64,000 nt of DNA from a bacterium (GCA_021787665.1 JAJYLN010000007.1:10135-74134), one strand, 5' to 3'. Shown: positions 1,963 to 46,017, numbered from the stretch's first letter. Numbers and translations are program-made. The notes: generated from the letters alone by a model not told the origin.

Positions 1963-2159
1963 CGTCAGCCTCCTCAAAAGTCCAAGTGAGCTTAGCACAC
2001 CATGAGAGCCGCGGTAAAGAGGCACAGGCCACCCACAGGGTATCGTCTTTATCACGGTGCCATTTTTGCCATATGTTCTCCTAAAAATGGATATTAAACA
2101 TCAATATTAGGCCTAATTTTGACACTTTACTTTCATATTTATGGATATAGGGTACTTGT

Positions 2160-3331
2160 ATGATGTTATATAAAAGGCTTATACAGGAAAACATACTCAA
2201 AGAATTGAATGCGCCGGAAATAATCATTATCAACGGTCCAAGGCGTGTCGGTAAAACAACCCTTCTCAAAACTATAGGACAACAGGTTACCGACAAAAAA
2301 AATGCATATTTCGATTTCACCGACCCCGCTATTATAAAGCTATGGCAGGATTTCTCTCAGGAAAAGATCAAGGCAGTCCTTGACGATATCGGCATACGCA
2401 ATGAGAGTGGAATTATCTTTTTCGATGAGATACAGTATCTGAGAAATATCGGATTGCTTTTGAAATTGTTTTATGACCATTTCCCCAAAATCAAGGTACT
2501 AGCCACCGGCTCCTCTTCATTCCTGTTTTTACACGACATAGGCGACAGCCTCGCGGGCAGGAAGAAAATGTTTCCCCTCGACTCCTGTCGCTTGAGGAAA
2601 TAACGGACGTCGTATCCGATGATTTATGGCGGTTCGAAGATAAGCCTGTTCAGGCGGCCAGCCTGCAGGAGGCCCTCAGGAAGATACTGATCACCGGCTC
2701 GTATCCCGAGGTATTCGGTATGGACGCATTCCAGAACAAGACCGAGAAACTGAAGGAGATTGTAGATTCATACCTTTTCAAAGACCTGCTCATGATCGAG
2801 GGCATAAAAAAGCCGAGGCTCATTGTCGAACTTACAAAGTATCTGGCGCATCACCTGGGCAGCATGGTCAATCCGAATGAGATAGCGGCCACGCTCGGCG
2901 TGTCCCGCAATACCGTGCTCAGCTACATCGACCTCCTGGAACGGTTCTTTATCGTCTTCAGGGTATACCCGTACGGCAAGAATCTCAGAAATGTTATGAG
3001 AAAGAAGTTTAAGATCTACTTTTACGACCCGGGCATCCGCAATGCCGTCATCGGCAACTTCATCCCGCTCGATCAAAGGGAGGACAGAGGCTTCCTTCTC
3101 GAGAACGCCGTTGCCCTGGGACTAAAGCGAAGGATCGACTATGAGCGCAAGCCGTACGAGCTTTTCTATTGGAGGAATTACGAGGGCAGGGAAGTCGATA
3201 TCGTGCTGACAGACGGCACCCTCACCGGCATCGAGGTTGCGTGGAACAAAAAGAACCACAAACTCACTAAAAGCTATCCGGGCAAGGGAATGATAACCGA
3301 TATCGGGGATGCCTACAAGTTTTGTTTGTAG
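2160..3331 (+). pseudogene. DUF4143-family AAA+ ATPase, disrupted by a frameshift near nt 2566-2600 (ORFs 2160..2603 and 2720..3331 are the two halves)
   Basis: The N-terminal ORF has a Walker A motif (GPRRVGKTT) and Walker B (IIFFDEIQ). The downstream ORF continues the same family in another frame. Both frames are open across the junction near a CCCC homopolymer. The 5' part is markedly AT-rich compared with its neighbours. Confidence 0.55.
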
Positions 3332-3470
3332 GGAAAGAAATAAAATAATCAAATCCGGAGAAGATTAATGATGCTATTTGGAATGGATAGAACATTACAA
3401 AAGACGTTTAAAAGAATAGGACGGATGCTGGATCAATTATCAAGAAGAAAGATTTGACTCCTTTTTTCAT

Positions 3471-4955
3471 TCAGTACATGAAGCTCGAGAAATGGGCAAA
3501 ACTCTGGAGGGGCGTCCACCATACGCCGAACAGGATCGTCGGGACAAGCAAGCTGATGATGATAAGCGCTGGCACCAATCCCACTCTGACCGGCTGTACG
3601 CCCTCCGGCGGCGTCTCGAGGTACATCTTCTTGATGACCCTCGCATAGTAGTACAGCGATACCACCGTGTTCACAACCGCCACGATGACGAGCCAGTAGA
3701 GCCCCTTGTCTATGGCGGCGAGAAACACGACCACCTTGCCGATGAAACCTGCAAAGGGCGGTAAGCCCGTCAGGGAGAACAGGAACACGGTCATCGCTGC
3801 GGAAAGACCGGGAGAAACCTGCGCGAGGCCGCTGTAGTGATCGATGTCCTCGGAGTGGATGCTGTTGTCAACTATCATGACGATGAAGAATGCGCCCATG
3901 TTCATGAAGAAATAGACCGCGAGGTAGAGCAGTACGGCGCTCACCGCCGCCCGTGAGACGATGGACAGACCAATCAGCATGTACCCGGCGTGGGCGATAC
4001 TCGAGTACGCGAGCATTCTCTTGATGTTATTCTGCGGTATCGCAACGATATTCCCGATCGTCATCGTGAACGCGGCAACGACCGCGACGATCAGCAGCCA
4101 CCGGATCGGACTCACATTGGCATAGTAGTGGGTCACGCTTACCGAGCTGATGTAGGCCGTGTAGAAGAACCTCATGATCACAGCGAAGCCGGCTGCCTTC
4201 GAGGCGACCGCGAGCAGCGCGGTCACCGGCGTGGGTGCACCCTCATAGACGTCCGGCGCCCACATATGCATGGGAACCATGACTATCTTGAACCCGAAAC
4301 CCGTGAGGACGAAGAGCGTTGCGACATACACCGTAATGCGCGGGTAGCCGTGGTTGATAAAGGCTATGAGAATATCTCCGAGGCTGAGAGAATGCGCCAT
4401 ACCGTACAGGAGGGACATGCCGTACAGCATGAACCCGGACGCTATGGAGCCATAGATGATGTACTTCAGCCCGGCCTCCTTCGAGCGCCGTGCGCCCCTG
4501 GTGTACGACACGAGCAGGTACGACATGACGCTGAGCAGTTCCATCGAGAGGTATATCATCAGCAGGTTCGTCGAGCTCGCCATCAGGGACATACCGATAC
4601 CGAAGCCGGAGAGAATGGCCACCAGCTCCCAACTCCCCTGCGTATCCTTGAGCTCCCGGGAATCCATTGCCATGAGCAGGACGTAGAGCACGGACACGTA
4701 CGCGATGAGACTGAAAAAGAGGCTGAACGGGTCTATCGTCACCAGGGCATGAAACGCCGTGTTGAGCGTAAGCCGCTCGTACAGGATCACGGTTGCTGCA
4801 GCGGCCCCCAGCATGCCGATGATGCCTATGGAGAAGGCCTCCTTGGCGCCAGACCGCTTCGTCAGCATGGCGCCCATGAGCGCGATAAGCGCCGTAAGCG
4901 CTGCGATCAGTTCCGGCGCAATCAGGACGAGCGACCTGGTCAGTCCCGTCTGCAT
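3471..4955 (-). CDS. nuoN: NADH-quinone oxidoreductase subunit N
   Basis: 494 aa polytopic antiporter-like subunit. Last gene of a co-linear nuoA-N block. Typical NuoN N-terminus. Confidence 0.9.
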   Translation of the reverse strand: MQTGLTRSLVLIAPELIAALTALIALMGAMLTKRSGAKEAFSIGIIGMLGAAAATVILYERLTLNTAFHALVTIDPFSLFFSLIAYVSVLYVLLMAMDSRELKDTQGSWELVAILSGFGIGMSLMASSTNLLMIYLSMELLSVMSYLLVSYTRGARRSKEAGLKYIIYGSIASGFMLYGMSLLYGMAHSLSLGDILIAFINHGYPRITVYVATLFVLTGFGFKIVMVPMHMWAPDVYEGAPTPVTALLAVASKAAGFAVIMRFFYTAYISSVSVTHYYANVSPIRWLLIVAVVAAFTMTIGNIVAIPQNNIKRMLAYSSIAHAGYMLIGLSIVSRAAVSAVLLYLAVYFFMNMGAFFIVMIVDNSIHSEDIDHYSGLAQVSPGLSAAMTVFLFSLTGLPPFAGFIGKVVVFLAAIDKGLYWLVIVAVVNTVVSLYYYARVIKKMYLETPPEGVQPVRVGLVPALIIISLLVPTILFGVWWTPLQSFAHFSSFMY

Positions 4956-15212: not shown

Positions 15213-15725
15213 TCATTCCCACGATACGATATCGGTCTTCCTTTCCTTCAGCCTGTCGCTGAAGCGTCGTATGACGACGTCCGGCACCAGCTCATCCGCC
15301 CTGCCCCCGAGCGATAGTATGTCCTTTATGATACTCGAGCTCAGGAACGAATACCTGTCCTCCGTCATCATAAAAACAGTCTCGATATTCCCGCTCATCT
15401 TTTTATTGGCGAGCGACATCTGCAGCTCGAACTCGAAGTCCGCGACCGTCCTCAGCCCGCGCAGCACGGTATCCACGTTCCTGGACTTAACGTAGTCCAC
15501 GAGCAGTCCCTTGAAAGGCTCCACGACCACCCTTCTCTCGCGCCTGAATATCTCTTTGATAATGCCCACCCGCTCCTCCATCGAAAAGAACGGTTTCTTG
15601 CCGGACTGGCTATAGGAGACGGCAACGATGACCTTCCGGAATATCTTCAGTGCCCTCTCAATGATATTAATATGGCCGTATGTGATGGGGTCGAATGACC
15701 CGGGATATATTACCACCTTGTCCAT
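15213..15725 (-). CDS. coaD: Phosphopantetheine adenylyltransferase
   Basis: VIYPGSFDPITYGH nucleotidyltransferase motif. ~170 aa from the MDKVV start. Conserved rsmD-coaD pairing. Confidence 0.9.
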   Translation of the reverse strand: MDKVVIYPGSFDPITYGHINIIERALKIFRKVIVAVSYSQSGKKPFFSMEERVGIIKEIFRRERRVVVEPFKGLLVDYVKSRNVDTVLRGLRTVADFEFELQMSLANKKMSGNIETVFMMTEDRYSFLSSSIIKDILSLGGRADELVPDVVIRRFSDRLKERKTDIVSWE

Positions 15726-15741
15726 ACTGTTACTCGCCCTA

Positions 15742-16323
15742 TCACCACCGCCTGACAACGGTCAGACACTTGTCTCCGTACCGATACACCGTGCTATGCA
15801 GGCCTTCGGACAGTACCTCCTCGGTGCCTCCGGGTGCATCCTTCTCGTGCGTGGTATGCTCGATGCCTATCAGGAGATCACCCGTCATTATCCCACTACG
15901 GATCAGGGAAGGCAACACACCAGTATACGCATGCACGTCCCCGTAAGGAGGGTCCACGTAAGCTATGTCCATCCTTGCGGCACTTTCCTTCAGGCGCACC
16001 AGTGCCCTTTTTGCATCCATCCGCATCACCGTATACGAGCCATTATCTAACAGATCCTCTTTTATTAAAGCAAGGTTTTTCAACAAAAATGTCGATGCCG
16101 GGTCGGAACGTTCGACAAAATAAACCATCCGCGCTCCCCTGCTCAAAGCCTCGATGCCCATGGCTCCGGTACCTGCAAAGAGGTCGAGGAACACGGCGTC
16201 CTCGATCCGGCGTCCCAGAATATCGAAAAATGCCTCCCGGACCTTGGCGAGCGTCGGACGGACAGCATGCCCGGCTGGCGACCTGAGACACATGCCCTTT
16301 AATCTGCCTCCGATTATCCTCAT
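15742..16323 (-). CDS. rsmD: 16S rRNA (guanine966-N2)-methyltransferase RsmD
   Basis: MRIIGGRLKG N-terminus, LDLFAGTGAMGIEALSRGA SAM-binding motif, and DPPY motif. Confidence 0.85.
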   Translation of the reverse strand: MRIIGGRLKGMCLRSPAGHAVRPTLAKVREAFFDILGRRIEDAVFLDLFAGTGAMGIEALSRGARMVYFVERSDPASTFLLKNLALIKEDLLDNGSYTVMRMDAKRALVRLKESAARMDIAYVDPPYGDVHAYTGVLPSLIRSGIMTGDLLIGIEHTTHEKDAPGGTEEVLSEGLHSTVYRYGDKCLTVVRRW

Positions 16324-27241: not shown

Positions 27242-27892
27242 CTAAAACAGGAATCTGTACCCGGCCATGACTTCATAGCCTCCCACGTTCACCGTGGAAC
27301 CGGGGAAGACTGAGTACTGATCTATCGGGACTGAGAGCTCGGCGGTGACTGCGCCGTTGCCCCCGACCACGAAGTCCGAGCCTACGACCGCCTCCAGGCC
27401 GAGGCCGTACGCGGTAACGCTGCCGTAACCATAGTAGCCCTGGCCCGTCGACGTATCGAATGCAGAGCTGTTGTATACGAGACCGACGCCCAGAAACGGT
27501 ATTATGTTGTTCAACGGGAATCTACCGAGCGCGTCCAGCTTGAGCGCTACGTTGCTGAAGTCCATGGTATAGGAATAATAGGTAGCCGTTTGTGTATCGT
27601 AGTTTGTTCCGCTCCAGCTCGAAACGCCGGTATAGTCGAGCTCGACTCCCAAGGCGAAGTAGTCCCCGAAATTGAAGCGGCTGTCCACCCCGATCCCGAT
27701 CCCCGTGCTAAAATCCTTCAGGCCGTCTGAATCCTGGTTCGGGAAAAACCCGATAAGCTTGACACCGACGGACCCGTTATGCCCCCTTGTACCGTACTGA
27801 TACGGATACGGATACTGTGCAACGGCAGTACCGCAAAGGACAAGCACCAATCCTCCTACCATCACGCCAGCTTTACTCATACTCTTTTTCAT
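27242..27892 (-). CDS. Outer-membrane beta-barrel protein (OmpA-like N-terminal barrel / OMP_b-brl family)
   Basis: Signal peptide ending AVAQ, alternating amphipathic beta-strands, and a C-terminal aromatic residue (F). Confidence 0.6.
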   Translation of the reverse strand: MKKSMSKAGVMVGGLVLVLCGTAVAQYPYPYQYGTRGHNGSVGVKLIGFFPNQDSDGLKDFSTGIGIGVDSRFNFGDYFALGVELDYTGVSSWSGTNYDTQTATYYSYTMDFSNVALKLDALGRFPLNNIIPFLGVGLVYNSSAFDTSTGQGYYGYGSVTAYGLGLEAVVGSDFVVGGNGAVTAELSVPIDQYSVFPGSTVNVGGYEVMAGYRFLF

Positions 27893-27919
27893 GTTCTCCC
27901 CCACCTCCATGTAGAGTAA

Positions 27920-30004
<2,085 letters not shown>

Positions 30005-30085
30005 TTACCATCCTTCTATGAACAGTACAAAGCGCGTCTCGCATTTGACAATTTGAATAAAATAAGTACACTCTAACATATCTAA

Positions 30086-33000
30086 TTGATTCATTTATTA
30101 AATACAACCATGAAATTTAATAAATCGTACAGAACATGCGACATCTATCATGGCGTCTATAAAATCAGTAAGCCCGAGGTGGGCGACGTAGTCATGAGGA
30201 GACGACTCTTCCGAATACTGGATAGCTTCAGGTCAAAGCCCGTCATCTGGCTGTCCGGCGTGCCGGGTGCCGGCAAGACGATACTCGCGGTCAGCTACTT
30301 GAACAGCCGCAAAATTCCGTACCTGTACTATCGCATGGAGGGGAGCGACACGGACCTTGCCACGTTCTTCTATTATCTGGGTATGGCGCTGGGGAATGCC
30401 CGATCCGGCAAGACACCTTTTGGACGATATAGCGGAACACGCGCCGGACAACTCGCCAGTCTGCCGCTCCTCACGCCCGAATACCGACTGGACGTCCCTG
30501 CATTCACCCGGTGGTTCTTTAACGAGTTCTACGGCATGATAGGGCACGAGAAAAGACTGGTTATCGTCTTCGACAATTATCAGGAAGTGCCCGCAGACTC
30601 CATGCTCCACGCCGTGATCGGCGAAGGGCTCTCGATGCTCCCCGAGGACGTGCACGCTGTCATAATAAGCAAAGGCGATCCGCCCCCGGCGTTTACGCCG
30701 CTGCGCATGGGCAACAAGATGGGGTTCGTCACGGACAAAGAGGTCCGGTTCACCCTGCCCGAGACCGTGGGCCTGCTGCACCGCATGGGGATAGTCCGTC
30801 CCGGTACGTCCGGATCGAAACAATTCCACGAGATGGCCGAGGGATGGGCGGCGGGTCTGGTTCTGCTGACGGAGGAATACAGAAGGGTGCCGGCCCAGCA
30901 AAAGCCATCGCTGCCCGACAAGGCGCTCCTATCGGAAAGATTGTTCGGCTACTTTGCGGACCACATCTTCGGCCGGCTGGACAAAGAATTGCAGGACTTT
31001 CTGCTGAGGACGTCTTTTCTGACGAAGGTAACGGCCGCGGCGGCCAGGGAGATGACCGGCGCAAAGCACCCGGAAGACATACTCGGCTATCTTCACCGGA
31101 ACAACTACTTCACGGTCAAGCTCGCGTCCCCGGAGCCCGCATACCACTACCACTCGCTCTTCCGGGAATTCTTGCTGTCACACGCGAGAGCGACTTTTAC
31201 CGAAGACGAGCTCCGCTCCGTCATGGCGCAGGCGGCCCGGCTCCTCGCCCAGTCTGGAGAGTTCGAAGAGGCGGCGAAGCTACTGGCGCGCGCGGGCGCA
31301 TGGCCCGATTTCACAAGTCTCGTCGTTGCCCATGCGCCTTCACTGCTCGCGCAGGGACGCAACCAGGTCCTGATACAATGGTTCAAACAAATGGATCAGA
31401 AGGCGGTTGCAGGAAATCCGTGGCTGCTGTACTGGTACGGTCTTTCGATATTCCCCTTCTCGCTGCCGGAGAGCCGCGCGTACCTCGAAAAGGCCTTTGC
31501 ATTGTTCAAAGAGCAGTCCGATGAAAACGGCATCTACCTGTCCTGGGCGAACGTCGTAAGGACGTACTGTATCGAATGGAACAGCTTTAAGCCGATCGAC
31601 AGCTGGCTCGACACGATAAACGGCTTCCTCGAACGCGTACCGCTGCCCCCGGGTGAGTCGGGGACCTACTTTATCTCGGTTATGCTTCTTGCACTGCTCT
31701 ATCGCAGGCCAAAATACGAAGACATAGCGCCGTGGCTCCTGCGTGCAGAGGAGATCGTGCTGTCCGGCAAAGGCACAGACATGCGTACCAGGATTATGAT
31801 CGGCAGCTACCTGATGCTATATTACTCGTGGACCGGGGATATCTCTAAAATGGAAGTCCTGATGAACACGCTCAGACCGCCGTTCAGGCATTACGACACG
31901 CGGAAGGACACGGCAAGGTCCACCGCAGACGGGCAGGGAACCATAACGCCACTCGATATGATCCAGTGGCAGATCGTCGAGTCTATATATGCATGGCAGA
32001 CGCTCTCCGCGGAAATCTCCTCTGCCATCGAAACGGGCATCGGCATAGCGAATAGCTACGGCCTGCACCTGTGGGACCACATACTGTATTCGCAGGGCGT
32101 ATATTATGCCCTCAGCGTCAACGACATGCCTGCCGCGGGCATGTATTTAGACAAGATGTCGAAGGGGGTAAACGTCAATAGTCTGGTGGACTGCTCGCAT
32201 TTTTATTATCTGAAGAGCTGGTACAGCCACGCGCAGGGCAAGCTGCCCCTGGCGATCGAATATGGAGAGAGCGCCCTGCGGAACGCAGTTCAGGCGGGCG
32301 CTGTCTTCCCGGAGATCCTATGCAGGCTCGGACTTGCACGGGTACAAACTGCGGCCGGCAATTACGGAAAGGCGCGCGAAAACGCCGCGCGTGCGGAAAG
32401 GCTCTCGCGCGACATGCGGTGCATCATGGGACAATGCTATTACCATTTGCTGGAAGCCCAGATCGCGTTCGAGCGGGGCGATGAAGAGCGTGGCATCGAG
32501 TCACTGCGGCAGGGCATGAAGATAGGGAGGGAACAGGGATACATCAACAACTGGCGCTGGATGCACGAACCCATGCTCTTCCTGTGTCTGCGAGCACTCC
32601 GGTACAGCATCGAAGTACCGTATGTGCGCATGCTCATCAAGAGGCGCGGCCTCTTGCCGGACCCCCGCTCACTCGACAGGTACGGCATCGATTCCCTGTC
32701 CGATGTAGAAAACTGGCCGTGGACGCTGGACATACGTACCCTCGGCGGCTTCGAGCTTATCAAAGAGGACGACGACGGCAAGCCTGTCGAGTCCCCTGTC
32801 CAGGGCAAGGTGCAAAAGATGCCGCTCGCCTTGCTCAAGGTGGTGATCGCCTCCGGCGGCACGGATGTACGGGAAGAGTCCGTCGTGGACGCACTTTGGC
32901 CCGAGGCGGAAGGCGATAGGACGCACACCGCCTTCTCCACGACCTTGCAGCGTCTCAGGCAGCTTATGGGCAGCGAGAGATGCATCAGGCTCAAAGAAGG

Positions 33001-33481
33001 CCGATTGTCCCTCGACCCGCTGGAGTGCAGGCTCGACGTATGGGAATTCGACCGCCTTCTCGACAAGGCCGACGCGCTGTGGAAGCACGACAGGGACAAG
33101 GCCGTCGGGCTGATAGACAAGGCCGTCGGGCTTTACCGAGGAGGCTTTTTGCCTGAAGACGTCGGCGCGGGGTGGACTACCTCCATGAGGGAGCGCATGA
33201 GGAGCAAGTTCATTCGCGCCCTCCACAGACTTGGGCATTACTGTGAAGAGCAGGGCGCATACGACAAAGCAGCAGGGGACTACACAAAGGGGCTCGAAGC
33301 GGACGACCTGTCCGAGGAGTTCTACCAGTCCCTCATGTTGTGCTACCATGCGATGGGCAGAGACGCGGAGGCTCTCTCGGTCTACCGCACGTGCCGACGT
33401 ATCCTGCATGACGTTCTGAACATAGCGCCTTCCTCGAAGACCGAGTCCATCTACCGGGACATCAAGAGCGCCCCCCAATAA
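30086..33481 (+). CDS. STAND-type transcriptional regulator: MalT-like NTPase + helical/TPR-like sensor region + C-terminal OmpR-type winged helix and BTAD (inverted SARP architecture)
   Basis: Walker A GVPGAGKT and Walker B VIVFDNY at the N-terminus, then an EGWAAGLVL MalT-like motif. The C-terminal ~260 aa match the SARP wHTH plus BTAD pattern (ALLKVVIASGG...DALWPE...TLQRLRQ...WEFDRLL...LYRGGFLPE...EAL.VYR.CR..L...L...P). Alternative start at 30110 (MKFNKS). Confidence 0.7.
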   Translation: MIHLLNTTMKFNKSYRTCDIYHGVYKISKPEVGDVVMRRRLFRILDSFRSKPVIWLSGVPGAGKTILAVSYLNSRKIPYLYYRMEGSDTDLATFFYYLGMALGNARSGKTPFGRYSGTRAGQLASLPLLTPEYRLDVPAFTRWFFNEFYGMIGHEKRLVIVFDNYQEVPADSMLHAVIGEGLSMLPEDVHAVIISKGDPPPAFTPLRMGNKMGFVTDKEVRFTLPETVGLLHRMGIVRPGTSGSKQFHEMAEGWAAGLVLLTEEYRRVPAQQKPSLPDKALLSERLFGYFADHIFGRLDKELQDFLLRTSFLTKVTAAAAREMTGAKHPEDILGYLHRNNYFTVKLASPEPAYHYHSLFREFLLSHARATFTEDELRSVMAQAARLLAQSGEFEEAAKLLARAGAWPDFTSLVVAHAPSLLAQGRNQVLIQWFKQMDQKAVAGNPWLLYWYGLSIFPFSLPESRAYLEKAFALFKEQSDENGIYLSWANVVRTYCIEWNSFKPIDSWLDTINGFLERVPLPPGESGTYFISVMLLALLYRRPKYEDIAPWLLRAEEIVLSGKGTDMRTRIMIGSYLMLYYSWTGDISKMEVLMNTLRPPFRHYDTRKDTARSTADGQGTITPLDMIQWQIVESIYAWQTLSAEISSAIETGIGIANSYGLHLWDHILYSQGVYYALSVNDMPAAGMYLDKMSKGVNVNSLVDCSHFYYLKSWYSHAQGKLPLAIEYGESALRNAVQAGAVFPEILCRLGLARVQTAAGNYGKARENAARAERLSRDMRCIMGQCYYHLLEAQIAFERGDEERGIESLRQGMKIGREQGYINNWRWMHEPMLFLCLRALRYSIEVPYVRMLIKRRGLLPDPRSLDRYGIDSLSDVENWPWTLDIRTLGGFELIKEDDDGKPVESPVQGKVQKMPLALLKVVIASGGTDVREESVVDALWPEAEGDRTHTAFSTTLQRLRQLMGSERCIRLKEGRLSLDPLECRLDVWEFDRLLDKADALWKHDRDKAVGLIDKAVGLYRGGFLPEDVGAGWTTSMRERMRSKFIRALHRLGHYCEEQGAYDKAAGDYTKGLEADDLSEEFYQSLMLCYHAMGRDAEALSVYRTCRRILHDVLNIAPSSKTESIYRDIKSAPQ

Positions 33482-33569
33482 CACACCTCAAGACGCGAAG
33501 ATTGCGGTTTAGGTTGAAATCCGTGTCCGATTCACTATGTTCTGGTACATAGTTTCCGGGTAAACACAC

Positions 33570-35156
33570 ATGGTCACAACAAACAACGACAAAGCATATA
33601 AATGGTGGGTCCTCGCCATCGTGATTATCGGCAGCTTCATGAGCGTACTTGACAGCTCCGGTATGAACATCGCCCTGCCCCATTTCATGGTCGCGTTCGG
33701 CATCAACATGGACCAGGTAGAATGGATATCGACGGTGTACATGCTTGCCTTCGCCATATTCATCCTGTTCGCCACGTGGATGAAGAACGTGATCGGCCTC
33801 AAACAGACGTTCCTCTGGGGCTTGTCCCTGTTCACGGCCGGTTCTTTCTTATGCAGCTTTTCGTGGAGCCTCGACTCCCTGATTTTCTTCAGGGTGATCC
33901 AGGCGATAGGCGCGGGCGCCATTACCCCGTTGAGCGTCACCATGATATCCGAAGTGTTTCCAAAAGAAGAGCGGGGGTTCGCGCTCGGCATGTGGGGCGC
34001 GGGTACCACCGTTGCACCTGCCGTGGGGCCTACGATGTTCGGCTATCTTATAGACCACGTGGGCTGGCGCGCACTGTTCTACGTGAACATACCTATCGGC
34101 ATGCTGACGCTGTTCTGGAGCATCACGGTACTGCGGCCGTCGAAAGGCAACCTGAAGTATTTCCGGTCTTTCGATTCCGCCGGCTTTCTGACGTTCTCGC
34201 TGTTCGTCTGCACACTCATGGTCGCCCTCCAGAAGGGACAGGAATGGGGGTGGATGTCGAAGGACATCATAACGCTGTTCGCTGTGGCCTACTTCTCGTT
34301 CCTCCTGTTCATTATGACCGAGTTTGTAGTCAAGAAGCCCATCATGGACCTCTCCATCTTCAAGAATTATAATTTCGCACTATCCAACGTCATGCAGTTA
34401 ACGAGGTCCGTTGCACTGGTTGGGAGCGTCTTCCTTATGAGCATGTTCTTCCAGAACCTCATGAACTATTCCGCCACGACGACGGGCGTCATGCTGATCC
34501 CGCAGGCGATCGCCCTCAGTATCAGCATGCCGATAGCGGGCAAGCTTTCCGATCATTTCGGCGCGAAAAGGCCGCTGGTAGCCGGTACCCTGCTGACGGC
34601 GTACTCGCTGTACTATTTCTCGAACCTCTCCATCTTTTCGAGCTACGGCTTCATCGTGGCGGGCATGCTGATGAGAGGGTGCGGGATCAGCTTCATCATG
34701 GCGCCCTTGACCATATCCGCTATCAACGCGCTGGAGCCCGAGCAGGTGAACCTCGGGTCGGGCGTACTGAACCTTATCATGAGGATCGGGAGCTCGTTCA
34801 GCATAGCCGTCATGGGCGTCATCGTGGAGAACCGTACGGACTTTCATATGTCCACGTATGCGGACAGCGCGGCGTATCGCTCACCGCTTTGGCACGGGGC
34901 TTTGAACAAGACCATGGCATACGCCCTCAGCAAAGGGGCGAGCTTCTATAACGCGGCAATCGCCGGGCGGGGCATCTATGTCGGGTATTATCTGAAACGG
35001 TGGGCGAATGCCAATGCTTATGATGATGCATTCTTTATTGGAGCCCTGTTCGTTCTGGCAAGCATAGTCCCGGCACTCATGCTGAAAGACATAATCTATA
35101 AGAAGACCAAGGGGCCCCAAAAGGCCGCCGTGGTCGGGTCGGAACAGGCCGACTGA
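33570..35156 (+). CDS. MFS transporter, DHA2 (EmrB/QacA) drug:H+ antiporter family, 14 TMS
   Basis: 528 aa with ~14 hydrophobic segments and MFS signature regions. Confidence 0.8.
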
Positions 35157-35245
35157 TCCGCCTCTGCACCGAAATCTCCGATCTGTGACCGATTTGTGAC
35201 TTTTCGCGTGGTAGACTCGAGTCCTTTAAAAAAAAGGAGAAAACT

Positions 35246-37075
35246 ATGAACAAGACAATTACCTTGATTATCGCAAGTGTGCTTGCCATGGGTATCATGG
35301 CGGGATGCAGCAGTACAAACGGCAAGAACGGCGCTACCGGCCCGCAGGGCCCGGCAGGACCTATTGGTCCGAGCGGACCGACAGGCGTAACGGGACCAAC
35401 AGGGACTACCGGAGGCATCGGCCCCACGGGCCCCACCATGCCGGTTATCCAGAGTCTTTCGGTGTATGGCCAACCGGCGAATCCAAGTGCGAGCTTTACG
35501 GCTGATGTCGTCGCACAGAGCGCACAGGGGCTTGCGCTGACCTATACGTGGACGGCAACAAGCCCGTGGGCTATATCGCCGTCCAGTGTAAACAGCCAGA
35601 CTGCAACCATTACCGCGCCTTCGAGCTACTCCGCTTCCGGCACGGCCACGATCGAAGTCAGCGATGCAAGCGGCAGGTACGCGATGGGCACGATTGCTCT
35701 GAGCACACAGGGTAACACTGCGCCCGTCATCGACAGCATTGCCATCGGTCCCCAGCCGGTTTATTCGGCGGCGAACCTCGAGTGTTATGCTCAGGACCCG
35801 GACGGCGATCTGCTAAACTTTTCATGGTTTATCGGAGCGTATTTGACAACGACGGGCTTTGAAAATAATACCGTGTGGAATTCACCGGGCATACCCGGCC
35901 TTTACAGGCTAATCGTCGAGGTGTACGACGGCCATGGTAATCTTTCAGAAGGAAGCAGCTATATGAACGTGAGCAGCGCCTCGCCCTGGCCCACGTTTCA
36001 CAGGGACATACAGGGAACAGGACTGAGTAATATAAATACAAGCTCTATAACAACACCGACACTAAAATGGAGCTATACAGACCCAAGCATGACGGGATAC
36101 CAGCTATTGGCATCACCGGTCATTAGTGCGGATGGAACGGTCTACGTAGGCACAACAAACTGGACAAACGGCGCACTGTACGCCATCAATCCGATTGATC
36201 AAGCACTCGACTGGAGCTTTACGACTGGGGGAGGAGGAATATGGGGAACGCCGACCATTGTCTCAAACGGAACCATCTATCTTCCCTCGGCGGATGATCA
36301 TCTTTATGCCCTCAACGCAACGAACGGAACGGTTGCCTGGAGCTTTACAACAGGGGGAACCATACACGCGACCCCGGCGATCGGAGCGGATGGCACGATC
36401 TATATCGGGTCGTACGATCAAAATTTCTATGCCATTAGTCCACAGGGGAAAGAAATATGGTATCATTGGACCGGCGGTCTCATTGATTCCGGGGCGTCAA
36501 TGGCTCCGGACGGAACTATCTACATCGGAGCAACATTTACTTCGCCTACGCCGAATCAGGGGATGTTATATGCGTTCTACCCGGACGGGACGGTTAAGTG
36601 GAGTCACCTGATATTCAGCGCAAGCTACAGCGCCGCTATAGATTCCAGTCCGGCAATCGGAGCGGACGGTACCATCTATGTCGGTTCGGAGGACCATGAT
36701 CTTTATGCAATCACACCAGCCGGATGGAACAAATGGGCCGCTGCAACGGGAGGTGGCATAGCCACTTCACCGTCAATCGGTCCTGACGGCACGATCTATG
36801 TGAGCTCCTTGGATGGCTACCTTTATGCGTTTAACCAGGATGGTACGGAGAAATGGTCCGTGCTGACAGGCTCGGTCTATTCATCACCTGCGATCGGAGC
36901 GGACGGTACCATCTATGTCGGTACACAGAATGGTTATCTTTATGCAATCTCACCTGCAGGAAACATAAAATGGGAATATTACGCAGGCAGTAGATTATAC
37001 TGTTCACCGTCAATCGGTTCTGATGGAAGCATATACATCGGAAACTATATTGGCTCCTTGAGCGTGGTACACTGA
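35246..37075 (+). CDS. Lipoprotein with collagen-like G-X-Y triple-helix segment, two Ig-like domains and an 8-bladed PQQ-like beta-propeller
   Basis: Lipobox IMAGC after a signal peptide. 13 consecutive G-X-Y triplets ([36 protein letters not shown]). Two homologous ~90-aa domains. Eight repeats of the motif GxDGTIYxGS..[DN]..LYA[IF]. Good RBS (AAGGAGA). Confidence 0.8.
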
Positions 37076-37143: not shown

Positions 37144-37177
37144 GAGAGTAGATGGGGTGTCCCGCCGCCGGCAGGAC
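37144..37177 (+). terminator. Rho-independent terminator after the propeller lipoprotein gene
   Basis: GGGGTGTCC-(11 nt loop)-GGACACCCC followed by TTTTT, about 70 nt after the stop codon. Confidence 0.6.
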
Positions 37178-37191
37178 ACCCCTTTTTCATG

Positions 37192-37252
37192 CTCCCGCGA
37201 CGGTACGGTCTACGTCGGCTCGAACGACAAACATCTCTATGCGATACACTGA
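37192..37252 (+). pseudogene. 3'-terminal gene remnant of a PQQ-propeller lipoprotein paralog (last ~20 codons only)
   Basis: An alternative frame reads SRDGTVYVGSNDKHLYAIH-stop. This matches the blade motif [16 protein letters not shown] of the upstream gene. No upstream coding continuation. Confidence 0.5.
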
Positions 37253-37578: not shown

Positions 37579-38184
37579 ATGCGTAGGACAGGGGCCGCCA
37601 CCCTCTTCCCGATCCTCCTCGTCTGTACCCTCGTGCAAGCAGGCCCTATCTGCGCCGCGGGCAGGGAGCGCACCGCGTACGAAGGCGTACAGACAGCAGA
37701 AGGCCGGGGCATCGACCTTCTCATGGATCAGGCGTACTACAGGTCCCTGACGGCGGATCTGGCCCGAGCAAAGCATGAAATCACGATCGTCATGTACCTG
37801 TTCAAGCTCACCGGACACGAATCAGCCCTGCCCAACCGTATCGCGGGCATGCTCATGGACAGTCATCGGCGGGGCGTGGACGTGACGGTTGTCCTGAATT
37901 TGGACCAGAAGAACAATCTGTACAAAGAAGAAGACGACCTGAATAGGACGAATCTGAAGACGGCAAAGGAGCTGGAGCACCGTGGTATAAAGGTCTCATT
38001 CGACTCCCTGCACAGGATAACGCACGAAAAGGTCATCATCATCGACCGCAGGATCATCTACATCGGCAGTCACAACCTTACGCAGAGCGCGCTGAAGTAT
38101 AACCACGAGGTGAGCGTACGGATCGTCTCTCCGGCCCTTGCTGGAGAACTCTTACCGTACGTGAAGACACTGATTCAGGAATAG
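37579..38184 (+). CDS. Secreted phospholipase D-family protein with a single HKD motif (Nuc-like endonuclease / PLD)
   Basis: Signal peptide MRRTGAATLFPILLVCTLVQAG and an HxKxxxxD motif (HEKVIIIDRRIIYIGSHNLT). 201 aa with only one HKD, so presumably active as a dimer like Nuc. Confidence 0.75.
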   Translation: MRRTGAATLFPILLVCTLVQAGPICAAGRERTAYEGVQTAEGRGIDLLMDQAYYRSLTADLARAKHEITIVMYLFKLTGHESALPNRIAGMLMDSHRRGVDVTVVLNLDQKNNLYKEEDDLNRTNLKTAKELEHRGIKVSFDSLHRITHEKVIIIDRRIIYIGSHNLTQSALKYNHEVSVRIVSPALAGELLPYVKTLIQE

Positions 38185-43923: not shown

Positions 43924-46017
43924 CTATAGCAATTTTGTTATGTCCAAGACCTGCGTAACAAGGCCCTTCATCTTTGCAAGCAGATTCAACCTGTTGGTCC
44001 TTATACCCGCGTCGTCGCTCATCACGAGCACCTTCTCGAAAAAGCTATTTATCGGCCCTACCAGATTTTTGACCAGATCTATATACTTAATATATTCCTT
44101 CTTTGCAAGCGCTAATTGAATTTTGGGCTCAAGCTCCAAGTAACTGTCATATAAGGACTTTTCTGATTGCTCGACCAGCAGGCCTGTATTGACTTCCCCG
44201 GCTGGATGGCTTTTGGATATGTTTATGACCCGCTTGAAGGCAAGAAAGACTGGCTCGAAATCCGGGTTTAAGCCAAAGGACTTATCAGCATTAGCTGAGA
44301 ACACTACATCTTTAAGGAAGTTTATACGCCGGTCGGCCTCAAGAATGTCGTCGGGCTCGGTTGCGATAACCGCGTCGATAAGCTTTCTTATGTTCGTGTA
44401 GCGTTCCGCCAGTATACCTTCGAGCCTTGTATAGAAGAAGCTGAGCAAAGAAGCCTGTAAGGTACCCTTATTATTGATATGGTTATACTGTCCGATACTA
44501 AAATCTATCAATGCCTTTATGTCTAATGTGATCTGTATCTGTGGGCCCGACACAGCGGACAACACTATATTTAAAATACCGATTGCAGCCCGCCGCAGCC
44601 CATAGGGATCCTGTGTGCTCGTCGGGGCCTCCCCTATGCTGAAGAACCCGACAAGCGAGTCGATCTTATCAGCAATATAAACAAGAGAGCCTGGTATTGA
44701 CATTGGCTGGCTATACTGTTCGGCAACTACAAGCGCCGTTGTTTTGTCCGATGGGTCTTTCAGCAATATATAATGGTGCCCAATAAGGCCCTGTAATTCC
44801 GGAAACTCCGAGACGAGCCGCGTAGCAAGATCAGCCTTACAGAGTCGTGCCGCCTGAAGGGTGATTGTTCTGAGGCTTTCATCGAGTTTAATTGTGTCGC
44901 AAAGGTATTTGGAAATCGCTACAATCCGCTCTGTCTTGTCGTAGAGGCTACCAAGCTGCGGGAAAAACACCATGCCCTTCAACAGATCGACATAGGATTC
45001 AAGGGGCTGTTTCATGTCCTGATTATAGTAGAACTCGGCATCCTCGAGCCGTGCGCGTAGCACCCTTTCGTATCCTTTTCTTATAATTTTTTTATCGCCG
45101 TAAGGATTATTACTTATACCAATGAAATAGGGCATCAATTTACCCCTGTCATCTGTAACGGGTATGTATTTCTGCTGGGTTTCCATAACACTCCTGATGA
45201 CCTCTTCCGGCATCTTCATGAACCTTGGGTCAAAGCTCCCCTGTATTGCGGTTGGCGATTCGACAAGGTTTGTAATGGCATTATGCAGATAGTAATCAAT
45301 AACTTCACCCCCCCCTACCTTCCTTGCCAATGTATTCGCCTGTTCCCTTATGTCTCTTATTCTTTCAGCAAACTCCGGCAGGATCTTTTCTCTTTTCATT
45401 GCCTTGCGCCATGAAGCAAGGCCGCTGATCTTTATCTTCCTCCCGCTGCCGGTCCTCAGTCCGTAGGTAAACGACGATGCCTTTACCGTACCTATCGAAA
45501 CCGGGACGACCGTGCCGTCGTACAGTACAATAAGCCATCGTATGGGCCGTATAAAACGTACACTTTCGCTGCCCCATCTCATGGACTTCCTGAACGGAGT
45601 GCCGAGTATCAGGCTTGCGAGTTTTTCTTTTATGAGAGATTTTGTGGATACGCCGGGCTTTTTGATCTCCACCTGAACAAACTCGCCCTTGTCGAGCTTA
45701 ACCATCCGTAGTGTTTTAACATCGACACCTTTTGACCGTGCAAAGCCGATTGCGGCCGGTGTCGGATTGCCGTCTTTATCGAAGGCCGCTTCCCTTCTCG
45801 GACCAGTATAAGTCGCCGTGCTCTGCTCGCCTTTGTCCGAGAGCCTCTCGACGCAGAGGACCAGCCGTCTCGGCGTAAAATAAGTTATTATTTCTGTGAA
45901 GGCTATGTGCTCCGAATCAAACAACTGCTTTATGCTGTTCGACAGGTGCTCTATCGCAGGGCTTATCTCTGCGACAGGTACTTCTTCGACGCCGATCTCG
46001 ATAAACAATTCCGCCAT
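43924..46017 (-). CDS. glyS: Glycine--tRNA ligase beta subunit
   Basis: 697 aa. N-terminus MAELFIEIGVEEVP is typical of GlyS. Immediately downstream of glyQ. Confidence 0.9.
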   Translation of the reverse strand: MAELFIEIGVEEVPVAEISPAIEHLSNSIKQLFDSEHIAFTEIITYFTPRRLVLCVERLSDKGEQSTATYTGPRREAAFDKDGNPTPAAIGFARSKGVDVKTLRMVKLDKGEFVQVEIKKPGVSTKSLIKEKLASLILGTPFRKSMRWGSESVRFIRPIRWLIVLYDGTVVPVSIGTVKASSFTYGLRTGSGRKIKISGLASWRKAMKREKILPEFAERIRDIREQANTLARKVGGGEVIDYYLHNAITNLVESPTAIQGSFDPRFMKMPEEVIRSVMETQQKYIPVTDDRGKLMPYFIGISNNPYGDKKIIRKGYERVLRARLEDAEFYYNQDMKQPLESYVDLLKGMVFFPQLGSLYDKTERIVAISKYLCDTIKLDESLRTITLQAARLCKADLATRLVSEFPELQGLIGHHYILLKDPSDKTTALVVAEQYSQPMSIPGSLVYIADKIDSLVGFFSIGEAPTSTQDPYGLRRAAIGILNIVLSAVSGPQIQITLDIKALIDFSIGQYNHINNKGTLQASLLSFFYTRLEGILAERYTNIRKLIDAVIATEPDDILEADRRINFLKDVVFSANADKSFGLNPDFEPVFLAFKRVINISKSHPAGEVNTGLLVEQSEKSLYDSYLELEPKIQLALAKKEYIKYIDLVKNLVGPINSFFEKVLVMSDDAGIRTNRLNLLAKMKGLVTQVLDITKLL

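Follow-up and report, generated by a model that had tools for sequence, protein, structure and literature searches.

A stretch of bacterial DNA of 64,000 nucleotides (GCA_021787665.1, JAJYLN010000007.1:10135-74134), hereafter the window, was analysed around a large regulatory gene at 30086-33481. The encoded protein, a STAND NTPase of the MalT branch, is probably a signal-gated activator which uses a SARP module as its output and switches on one lipoprotein gene (35246-37075) through a pair of direct repeats at 35184-35205. An initial annotation had described the protein as a STAND regulator of inverted SARP architecture, at the head of a same-strand block of genes for a major facilitator superfamily (MFS) pump, a propeller lipoprotein and a phospholipase D-like (PLD) protein that it may control. 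The analysis reassigned the likely target in the window from this whole block to the lipoprotein gene.

Domain architecture of the regulator

Domain searches showed that the regulator begins with a MalT-type nucleotide-binding oligomerization domain (NOD), continues into a long helical region and ends in an OmpR-type winged helix followed directly by BTAD (Table 1; residue numbers count from ATG 30110). Pfam, NCBIfam, PDB and AlphaFold/Foldseek searches agreed on this order, which the initial annotation had read correctly from the sequence. The Pfam scan placed BTAD (PF03704) at the extreme C-terminus (E 1.3e-25, 90.9 bits with a cut-off of 22.1, model positions 1-145 of 146), with weak P-loop matches at the N-terminus (AAA_22, AAA_16 and NPHP3_N) and TPR_12, TPR_19 and a weak TPR_MalT match (18.7 bits vs a 45-bit cut-off) in the helical region between them. 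The NCBIfam MalT model covered residues 23-437 (E 1.4e-39; 135.9 bits, under its 537-bit equivalog cut-off), while positions 55-265 of the NCBIfam AfsR model aligned to residues 905-1116 (E 4.4e-17). A sequence search of the PDB matched the MalT NOD (8bob_C) over residues 18-437 and AfsR at residues 906-1116 only, where the full-length chains 8jke_I and 8k60_I aligned at AfsR 50-260. The AlphaFold model, built on an alignment of 50 sequences, had a mean predicted local distance difference test (pLDDT) score of 86.8. Foldseek with this model returned MalT 8bob_C (E 5.5e-13), the AfsR SARP domain 8k60_I (target template modelling (TM) score 0.74-0.75, root-mean-square deviation ~4 Å, 256 columns) and EmbR 2ff4, which also matched the SARP module over ~256 columns. 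The three motifs previously noticed (GVPGAGKT, VIVFDNY and EGWAAGL) were each found in the sequence and their key residues were invariant in the 50-sequence alignment. In AfsR, T88 and R92 contact DNA bases (PMC10936776), and these residues aligned gap-free to T944 and R948 of the regulator, the latter being invariant in 50 of 50 homologues.

With its nucleotide-binding domain, helical domain and winged-helix domain the protein belongs to the MalT clade of STAND NTPases, and with an OmpR-type winged helix directly before BTAD it belongs to the SARP family. It does not have the C-terminal LuxR-type helix-turn-helix (HTH) of MalT proper and LAL regulators, as no LuxR/GerE HTH was matched by Pfam, NCBIfam or Foldseek. 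The SARP module is C-terminal (residues 873-1120 of 1123) and not N-terminal, and the layout of an AfsR-like large SARP, an NB-ARC-type NOD and a C-terminal TPR sensor after the SARP module, is absent, with no Pfam match to NB-ARC. The expression "inverted SARP architecture" was therefore misleading, since the NTPase is of the MalT type and full-length AfsR chains matched in the SARP module only. Circular permutation of AfsR was ruled out as the AfsR NOD had no sequence match to the regulator. Because its NTPase is of the MalT type and not of the NB-ARC type of AfsR, the regulator is best described as a MalT whose LuxR output has been exchanged for a SARP output, with NOD, sensor and DNA-binding domain in the sequence usual for MalT/LAL regulators.

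An antiviral STAND (Avs-like) sensor in place of a housekeeping transcription factor is extremely improbable. Defence proteins are numerous among bacterial STAND NTPases, Foldseek gave a weak match to Avs4 (rank 29) and a PLD-like protein with DrmC-like similarity is encoded nearby; however, PADLOC assigned the regulator to no defence family and gave just a 14.5-bit TPR match, and neither a curated defence model nor a toxic effector domain was found. The effector is instead a DNA-binding activator module with a conserved predicted operator before lipoprotein genes, and the PLD-like protein scored under every curated cut-off and has a signal peptide.

The domain order had been called uncommon, which is wrong for nature because thousands of proteins share it. 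An exhaustive HMMER search of 1.84 billion representatives with residues 440-1123 as query returned 3,133 representatives of 50%-identity clusters for the sensor and SARP half at E ≤ 1e-30. Most of the top 150 matches were ~1000-1120 amino acids long with a match start near residue 413, and about one fifth were shorter, apparently truncated sequences. A word-indexed search (8,000 scored candidates) gave at least 1,462 clusters at 90% identity with E ≤ 1e-5. The best 120 of these 1,462 clusters were 981-1140 amino acids long, covered at least 96% of the query in all but one partial protein, and paired BTAD with WHD_MalT (PF25873) save in the partial protein and P0066. Full-length members were found in Nitrospira, Ca. 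Sulfobium, Deltaproteobacteria, Desulforapulum, Deferrisomatales, Burkholderiales, other Beta- and Gammaproteobacteria, Aquisalimonas and Ca. Muproteobacteria, and the span of the family includes Desulfobacterota. Names of homologue records include "MalT/DNA-binding SARP family transcriptional activator" and "BTAD domain-containing putative transcriptional regulator". It is only from the characterised SARP classes that the C-terminal order is absent, as the small, medium and large classes all carry the SARP module N-terminally (PMC10936776; bioRxiv 10.64898/2026.09.02.748808). A full-text literature search found no paper on a protein with a MalT NOD and a C-terminal SARP module, an earlier description in a domain catalogue (e.g. 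the STAND survey of Leipe et al. 2004) being possible. The regulator is typical of its family, which is very large, has been annotated automatically and is apparently uncharacterised, and which is a variant of two known kinds, the MalT/LAL regulators and the SARPs. Tandem paralogues of the regulator are indicated in some Betaproteobacteria by two winged-helix matches per locus in L016 (8407-8736 and 11683-12003) and L024 (1090-1437 and 4377-4718).

Predicted operator and its conservation

A shared tandem repeat was first seen by comparing the DNA before the propeller genes of the window and of an orthologous locus, L001. In the window it consists of two 11-bp direct repeats, TGTGACCGATT and TGTGACTTTTC. 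The exact pattern TGTGAC-N5-TGTGAC (35184-35200, plus strand) has a single occurrence in the window with ~0.007 expected from base composition. A scan of the 64 kb with a position weight matrix (PWM) built from 10 non-redundant sites scored the operator at 55 bits and everything else at 12 bits or less, so that the PWM found no further box in the window, where single 9-mers with up to one mismatch were scattered. The repeat units begin 28 and 17 nucleotides upstream of the hexamer TAGACT, and if TAGACT is the -10, from which the transcription start would follow, the box spans -40 to -19. No -35 hexamer was found before the lipoprotein gene; CCGATT occupies that position and a -35/-10 scan misses the promoter. 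The sequence TTCGTGTGGTA was considered as a third repeat unit and rejected, being out of register with the other two and a better fit to a TRTGn extended -10. In the cryo-EM complex of AfsR with its afs box the SARP dimer contacts the same -40 to -19 coordinates, with one 11-bp repeat read by each protomer and the -35 overlapped by the more upstream of the two (PMC10936776). By computation the window promoter agrees with the layout of SARP target promoters, in which direct repeats 11 or 22 bp apart overlap the -35 and the 3' repeat stands at a fixed short distance from the -10. A search for tandem repeats near the -35 of two promoters downstream of the regulator had been suggested; two 11-bp direct repeats were present at 35157-35245, in SARP geometry, and 33482-33569 held a chance-level half-site.

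Orthologues of the regulator (50-53% identical) lie in quite different upstream contexts, and every one examined is followed by same-strand genes for exported proteins. The genes after them encode orthologues of the propeller lipoprotein, a 465-amino-acid lipoprotein without family assignment, a small outer membrane protein (OMP) beta-barrel, a Big_5/NHL propeller with a collagen-like run and a cytoplasmic protein of 77-91 amino acids. The exact TGTGAC-N5-TGTGAC pattern occurred 13 times in 7 orthologue loci (9 non-redundant), with at least one behind every examined orthologue, and all 13 boxes were intergenic, on the coding strand and just upstream of a gene following the regulator. In L001 the propeller orthologue, 73% identical to that of the window, stands directly behind the regulator and likewise has the TGTGAC box, and the propeller lipoprotein orthologues of L002, L004 and L084 are also preceded by a box. 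The consensus of the 10 non-redundant sites, atcTGTGACCAATCTGTGACTTTTCgTGTGGTAtnnn, comprises two 11-bp units, TRTGn and TAnnnn (extended -10) without a -35; TG was present in 9 of the 10 sites and TA in all of them, and all 10 lacked a -35 and kept a fixed 17-nucleotide offset to the extended -10.

When metagenomes were scanned with the box in a 21-base form, 53 further loci were found. On the contigs that hold the regulator (L056, L065, L069, L071, L080 and L085) it lies upstream of the box or divergent from it. The genes preceded by a box encode many lipoproteins and signal-peptide proteins, a PhoD-like metallophosphatase exported by the twin-arginine (TAT) route, a CHASE2 cyclase, an FHA protein and, by sequence resemblance, a LemA-like protein and a protein that contains the first part of an AAA+ ATPase domain like that of a sigma-54-type activator. 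In at least 11 metagenome loci the box precedes the gene of a small "YIVRIYR" protein, which has a C-terminal extension in L056, L057 and L081 that scores as PilZ in L056, the one scanned.

Relatives with only 26-37% identity showed 11-bp-spaced repeats of other sequence (9-mers agreeing at 8 or 9 positions) 35-125 nucleotides after the regulator stop. Such repeats were found in L008 (ATCCGTGAG twice), L010 (ATCTGTAGG and ATCTGTGGG), L012, L017 (ATCTGTTAC and TTCTGTTAC), L028 (ATCTCTAAG and ATCTCTAGG), L089 (CTGTAAG twice) and L091 (ATCCGTTAC and ATCTGTTAC, then TGTGGTA). A repeat was located 441 nucleotides after the regulator stop in L019 and in the divergent upstream intergenic region in L090; similar repeats occurred in L013 before the small gene that precedes the regulator, and in L016 immediately 5' of the regulator itself. 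In the 150 nucleotides after the stop, 5 repeats were seen in the first 18 distant loci vs ~0.3 expected (per-position probability ~1.1e-4, in line with the repeat density elsewhere in these loci), and two of four further distant loci had a repeat.

The sequence of the box co-varied with residue 943 of the recognition helix, which is suggestive of a role for this residue in specificity. Boxes ending in ..AC paired with S, T or V at this position (11 of 11) and boxes ending in ..AG or ..GG with E or D (6 of 6), while residue 940 followed no simple rule with the box sequence. The regulators associated with TGTGAC all had the helix H-[ST]-A-F-[ST]-T-T-L (9 of 9), including ones only 34-45% identical overall.

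From these features the following mechanism was inferred for the DNA binding, the sign of regulation, the ATP dependence, the ligand and the transcription start. At rest the NOD and the helical sensor would keep the regulator off, and a ligand on the helical repeats would permit ATP-dependent self-association, by analogy with MalT and AfsR. Two SARP modules would then sit side by side on the two TGTGACnnnnn units of the computed site. If the -10 is assigned correctly, these units would lie at about -40 to -19 of a promoter with an extended -10 and no -35, and the bound dimer would replace the -35 contact, recruit sigma-70 RNA polymerase and activate the lipoprotein gene.

Several points weigh against this mechanism. 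Each step is computational or inferred, and the -40 to -19 placement depends on the -10 assignment. The only box of the window is separated from the regulator by 1.7 kb, in which an unrelated MFS gene lies. No recognisable repeat was found in the distant locus L088 and several others. The co-variation is only suggestive because its sample is small and partly related, comprising 17 regulator-box pairs of which several are closely related. In addition, Asn takes the place of the second acidic residue of Walker B in 47 of 50 family members (DNY in 45, DNF in 2; DDY in the other 3), as in D155-N156 of the regulator (30572-30577), whereas MalT has D-D ("viddyh" in the alignment), and therefore ATP hydrolysis may differ from that of MalT and may be slow or altered.

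The box also resembles the Pho box and could therefore be read by another OmpR-type protein. On such a reading the TGTGAC repeats would be bound by a different factor, e.g. a PhoB/OmpR-type response regulator, and the proximity of the STAND gene would reflect shared membership of a regulon, which is quite unlikely. An OmpR-type regulator and kinase pair does lie beside the regulator in L001 and one metagenome target is the TAT-exported PhoD-like metallophosphatase, but the pair is not conserved in L002, L004 and L007 and no pst or pho genes occur among the 53 box-bearing loci. Moreover, the box varies with the recognition helix of the adjacent STAND protein, which is unexpected for a conserved housekeeping regulator. 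Half-sites of CRP likewise read TGTGA, but the repeats here are direct and not palindromic, which excludes CRP-type binding.

Finally, the same protein on the same site might act as a repressor or dual regulator, with binding over -35 to -19 blocking RNA polymerase. The box overlaps the core promoter, and GSU1771 of Geobacter sulfurreducens, which has a C-terminal SARP module, behaved largely as a repressor in mutant studies, where its deletion resulted in thicker and more electroactive biofilms (PMC10599522), a point that weighs against activation here as well. Repression is nevertheless unlikely, as 10 of 10 non-redundant sites lack a -35 and keep a fixed 17-nucleotide offset to the extended -10, like SARP and PhoB promoters that depend on an activator (PMC10936776), and BTAD is present and well conserved.

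Neighbouring genes and other features of the window

The features located in the window are as in Table 1. The ORF of the regulator proved to be real. Its start is more likely ATG 30110 than TTG 30086 because the promoter at 30045-30072 leaves only 6 nucleotides before the TTG. The identical database protein P0001 (1123 amino acids) is called from ATG 30110, and an alternative gene call, P0265 (1131 amino acids), has the TTG start at 30086. The PWM scan of the window found no TGTGAC box at the regulator promoter, and nothing therefore points to autoregulation. Behind the stop codon of the regulator there is a weak hairpin.

Table 1. Coordinates of the regulator gene, its domains, the predicted operator and the neighbouring genes in the window (ORF, open reading frame; CDS, coding sequence)
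Feature	Position	Strand	Basis or remarks
Sigma-70-like promoter of regulator gene, TTGACA-16-TACACT	30045..30072	+	consensus scan, 10/12 matches
Regulator ORF	30086..33481	+	1131 codons from TTG
Regulator CDS, preferred start	30110..33481	+	1123 amino acids from ATG 30110
MalT-type NOD (P-loop nucleotide-binding domain, helical domain, winged-helix domain), residues 28-362	30191..31195	+	NCBIfam MalT model, 8bob_C, AlphaFold2, PF25873
Walker A GVPGAGKT, residues 50-57	30257..30280	+	sequence; G53, G55, K56, T57 invariant (50 homologues)
Walker B VIVFDNY, residues 151-157	30560..30580	+	sequence; D155 invariant (50 homologues)
EGWAAGL of helical domain, residues 244-250	30839..30859	+	G245, W246 invariant (50 homologues); aligns with MalT "sGWAtaL"
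All-helical repeat region (presumed arm and sensor), residues 365-858	31202..32683	+	AlphaFold2: ~27 helices, pLDDT mostly >90
OmpR-type winged helix, residues 873-975	32726..33034	+	AlphaFold2 topology; AfsR alignment
Recognition helix, residues 936-953	32915-32968	+	within winged helix
BTAD, residues 976-1120	33035..33469	+	Pfam PF03704; Foldseek to AfsR, EmbR
MFS gene's own promoter, TTGAAA-16-TATGTT	33514-33541	+	-35/-10 scan
DHA2/EmrB-type MFS efflux gene	33570..35156	+	TIGR00711, 358.7 bits, above cut-off
Predicted operator, two 11-bp direct repeats	35184..35205	+	pattern and PWM search
Upstream repeat unit	35184-35194	+	
Downstream repeat unit	35195-35205	+	
Extended -10, TG-G-TAGACT (TGGTAGACT)	35209..35217	+	TG 35209-35210; hexamer TAGACT 35212-35217
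Ribosome-binding site AAGGAG	35234-35239	+	
ATG of lipoprotein gene	35246	+	
Predicted target, lipoprotein gene	35246..37075	+	lipobox AGCSS, collagen-like G-X-Y run, Ig/PKD-like repeats, PQQ-like beta-propeller
PLD-like gene	37579..38184	+	signal peptide, single HKD, below every curated cut-off

The MFS, propeller lipoprotein and PLD genes were confirmed on the strand of the regulator as described. Control of all three by a rare "inverted AfsR" is very improbable and already largely refuted. The genes share one strand and the propeller gene has the box, but the NOD is of the MalT type with AfsR matching in the SARP module only, and the architecture is common to ~3,100 clusters at 50% identity. 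The evidence does not support control of the whole block, because the MFS gene is served by a separate promoter, was found at none of the orthologous loci examined and is preceded by a half-site at chance level, and because the PLD gene is without a box and lies 500 nucleotides beyond the propeller gene, past a decayed propeller-blade fragment. The one box in 64 kb stands before the propeller gene only. The candidate box upstream of the MFS gene (33482-33569), a 14-nucleotide partial match ATCCGTGTCCGATT, had a local score of 18, and as other stretches of 88 nucleotides in the 64 kb scored 20-23 it was rejected as chance. There is no evidence that the MFS gene is in the regulon.

The best NCBIfam match of the propeller lipoprotein was the PQQ-like domain of AfsK, and this resemblance was treated as generic repeat similarity and not as a link to AfsR signalling. 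Its collagen-like run comprises residues 24-63 (35315-35434). A lipobox and a collagen-like G-X-Y start are common to the box-preceded lipoproteins of the window, L004 (9159-10544), L001 (13510-15309) and L084, and the globular domains that follow differ, being a PQQ-like propeller or Big_5/NHL. This common start suggests a shared stalk for surface display.

The small cytoplasmic "YIVRIYR" protein (60-93 amino acids, core "xYIVRIYRr..D...vGxVEeVg....F....ELw.IL") adjoins the regulator in 11 of 22 loci and is usually encoded by the first gene behind the box. It was located in L002 (10830-11042), L004 (6940-7182), L007 (8954-9178), L008 (9270), L009 (9417), L010 (9327), L013 (2456), L014 (456), L016 (12465), L024 (5249) and L056 (6706). 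It had no Pfam or NCBIfam match and was not found in the window by tblastn and motif search, nor was the 465-amino-acid lipoprotein by tblastn. On the other side of the regulator, 9 nucleotides downstream of ligA, an ORF of 222 amino acids (27242-27910, minus strand) is 48-53% identical to the box-preceded OMP beta-barrel gene of L007 (and L084); it has no box and no Pfam match.

A short ORF at 37157-37252 (plus strand), ending in "...DGTVYVGSNDKHLYAIH", is the decayed last blade of a second propeller gene, directly behind the intact one; in L001 there are similar blade fragments at 15540-15806, and the small gene is present there as a broken copy at 15431. Between 37189 and 37579 the translations "GRFQTCPY" and "GRFETCPYA" were found on opposite strands, which suggests that the interval separating the propeller gene from the PLD gene holds an inverted repetitive element. 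The PLD-like protein was closest to the DISARM DrmC and NucT models, under all cut-offs, and no other DISARM genes were seen near its gene. The G+C content dips to 0.48 at 2001-4000 and 44001-46000, vs ~0.56 elsewhere in the window.

Comparison with known systems

SARPs have been studied almost only as antibiotic regulators of actinomycetes, with the DNA-binding module always N-terminal. In the present family, which numbers thousands of proteins from Gram-negative lineages of anaerobes and nitrifiers, a MalT-type ATP switch has the SARP module as its output. It is an evenly balanced proposal that this very large class, whose 50%-identity clusters number in the thousands across Desulfobacterota, Nitrospirota and Beta-/Gammaproteobacteria, combines the MalT-type ATP switch with SARP-style replacement of the -35 at promoters with an extended -10 only, and reads the last bases of a 9-bp core by a simple and partly readable code at residue 943. 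In the same proposal the class would control surface lipoproteins (propellers on collagen-like stalks) and the "YIVRIYR" protein, sometimes fused to PilZ, in parallel to AfsR-AfsS. If true, SARP-type activation would be a general bacterial mechanism and not a speciality of actinomycetes. The 22-bp predicted operator, the promoter geometry, the candidate specificity residue and the candidate regulon make the family directly testable, and would let annotators predict targets from sequence.

The regulator shares with Escherichia coli MalT and the LAL regulators a homologous NOD over ~420 residues, the GWAxxL motif and the order of NOD, helical sensor and C-terminal DNA-binding domain. By analogy with MalT, ligand- and ATP-dependent self-association before DNA binding would be expected of it. 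It differs from MalT in its output (winged helix and BTAD instead of a LuxR-type HTH) and in its Walker B (D-N instead of D-D), and the sensor regions are barely similar.

With AfsR of Streptomyces coelicolor the regulator shares a homologous and superposable SARP module (target TM 0.75) with conserved base-contacting T and R residues, and a predicted box of two 11-bp direct repeats at about -40 to -19 where the -35 is poor or absent (PMC10936776). The SARP module is N-terminal in AfsR whereas it is C-terminal here, the NOD is of the MalT type instead of NB-ARC, and the hosts of the family are Gram-negative lineages whereas those of AfsR are actinomycetes. Many relatives have as first target the gene of a small protein, immediately 3' of the regulator, much as afsS adjoins afsR, although the "YIVRIYR" protein, missing from the window, is unrelated to AfsS.

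Outside the actinomycetes, an N-terminal sensor or receiver before a C-terminal SARP/BTAD output is also described for GSU1771 (REC-wHTH-BTAD, where wHTH is a winged HTH; PMC10599522) and for DnrS of Thermus thermophilus (GAF ... BTAD; PMC5748679), the likeness being one of described domain order. Both proteins are much smaller and have a receiver or GAF input, whereas the regulator has a STAND NTPase and a helical-repeat sensor. PhoB likewise has an OmpR-type winged helix, which binds two direct repeats 11 bp apart that take the place of the -35 where the promoter has a good -10, and the CTGTGAC core of the predicted box is close to the CTGTCAT of the Pho box (CTGTCAT-N4-CTGTCAT). Unlike PhoB, the regulator has no receiver domain and carries BTAD, and its predicted targets are lipoproteins and a small cytoplasmic protein instead of pst/pho genes.

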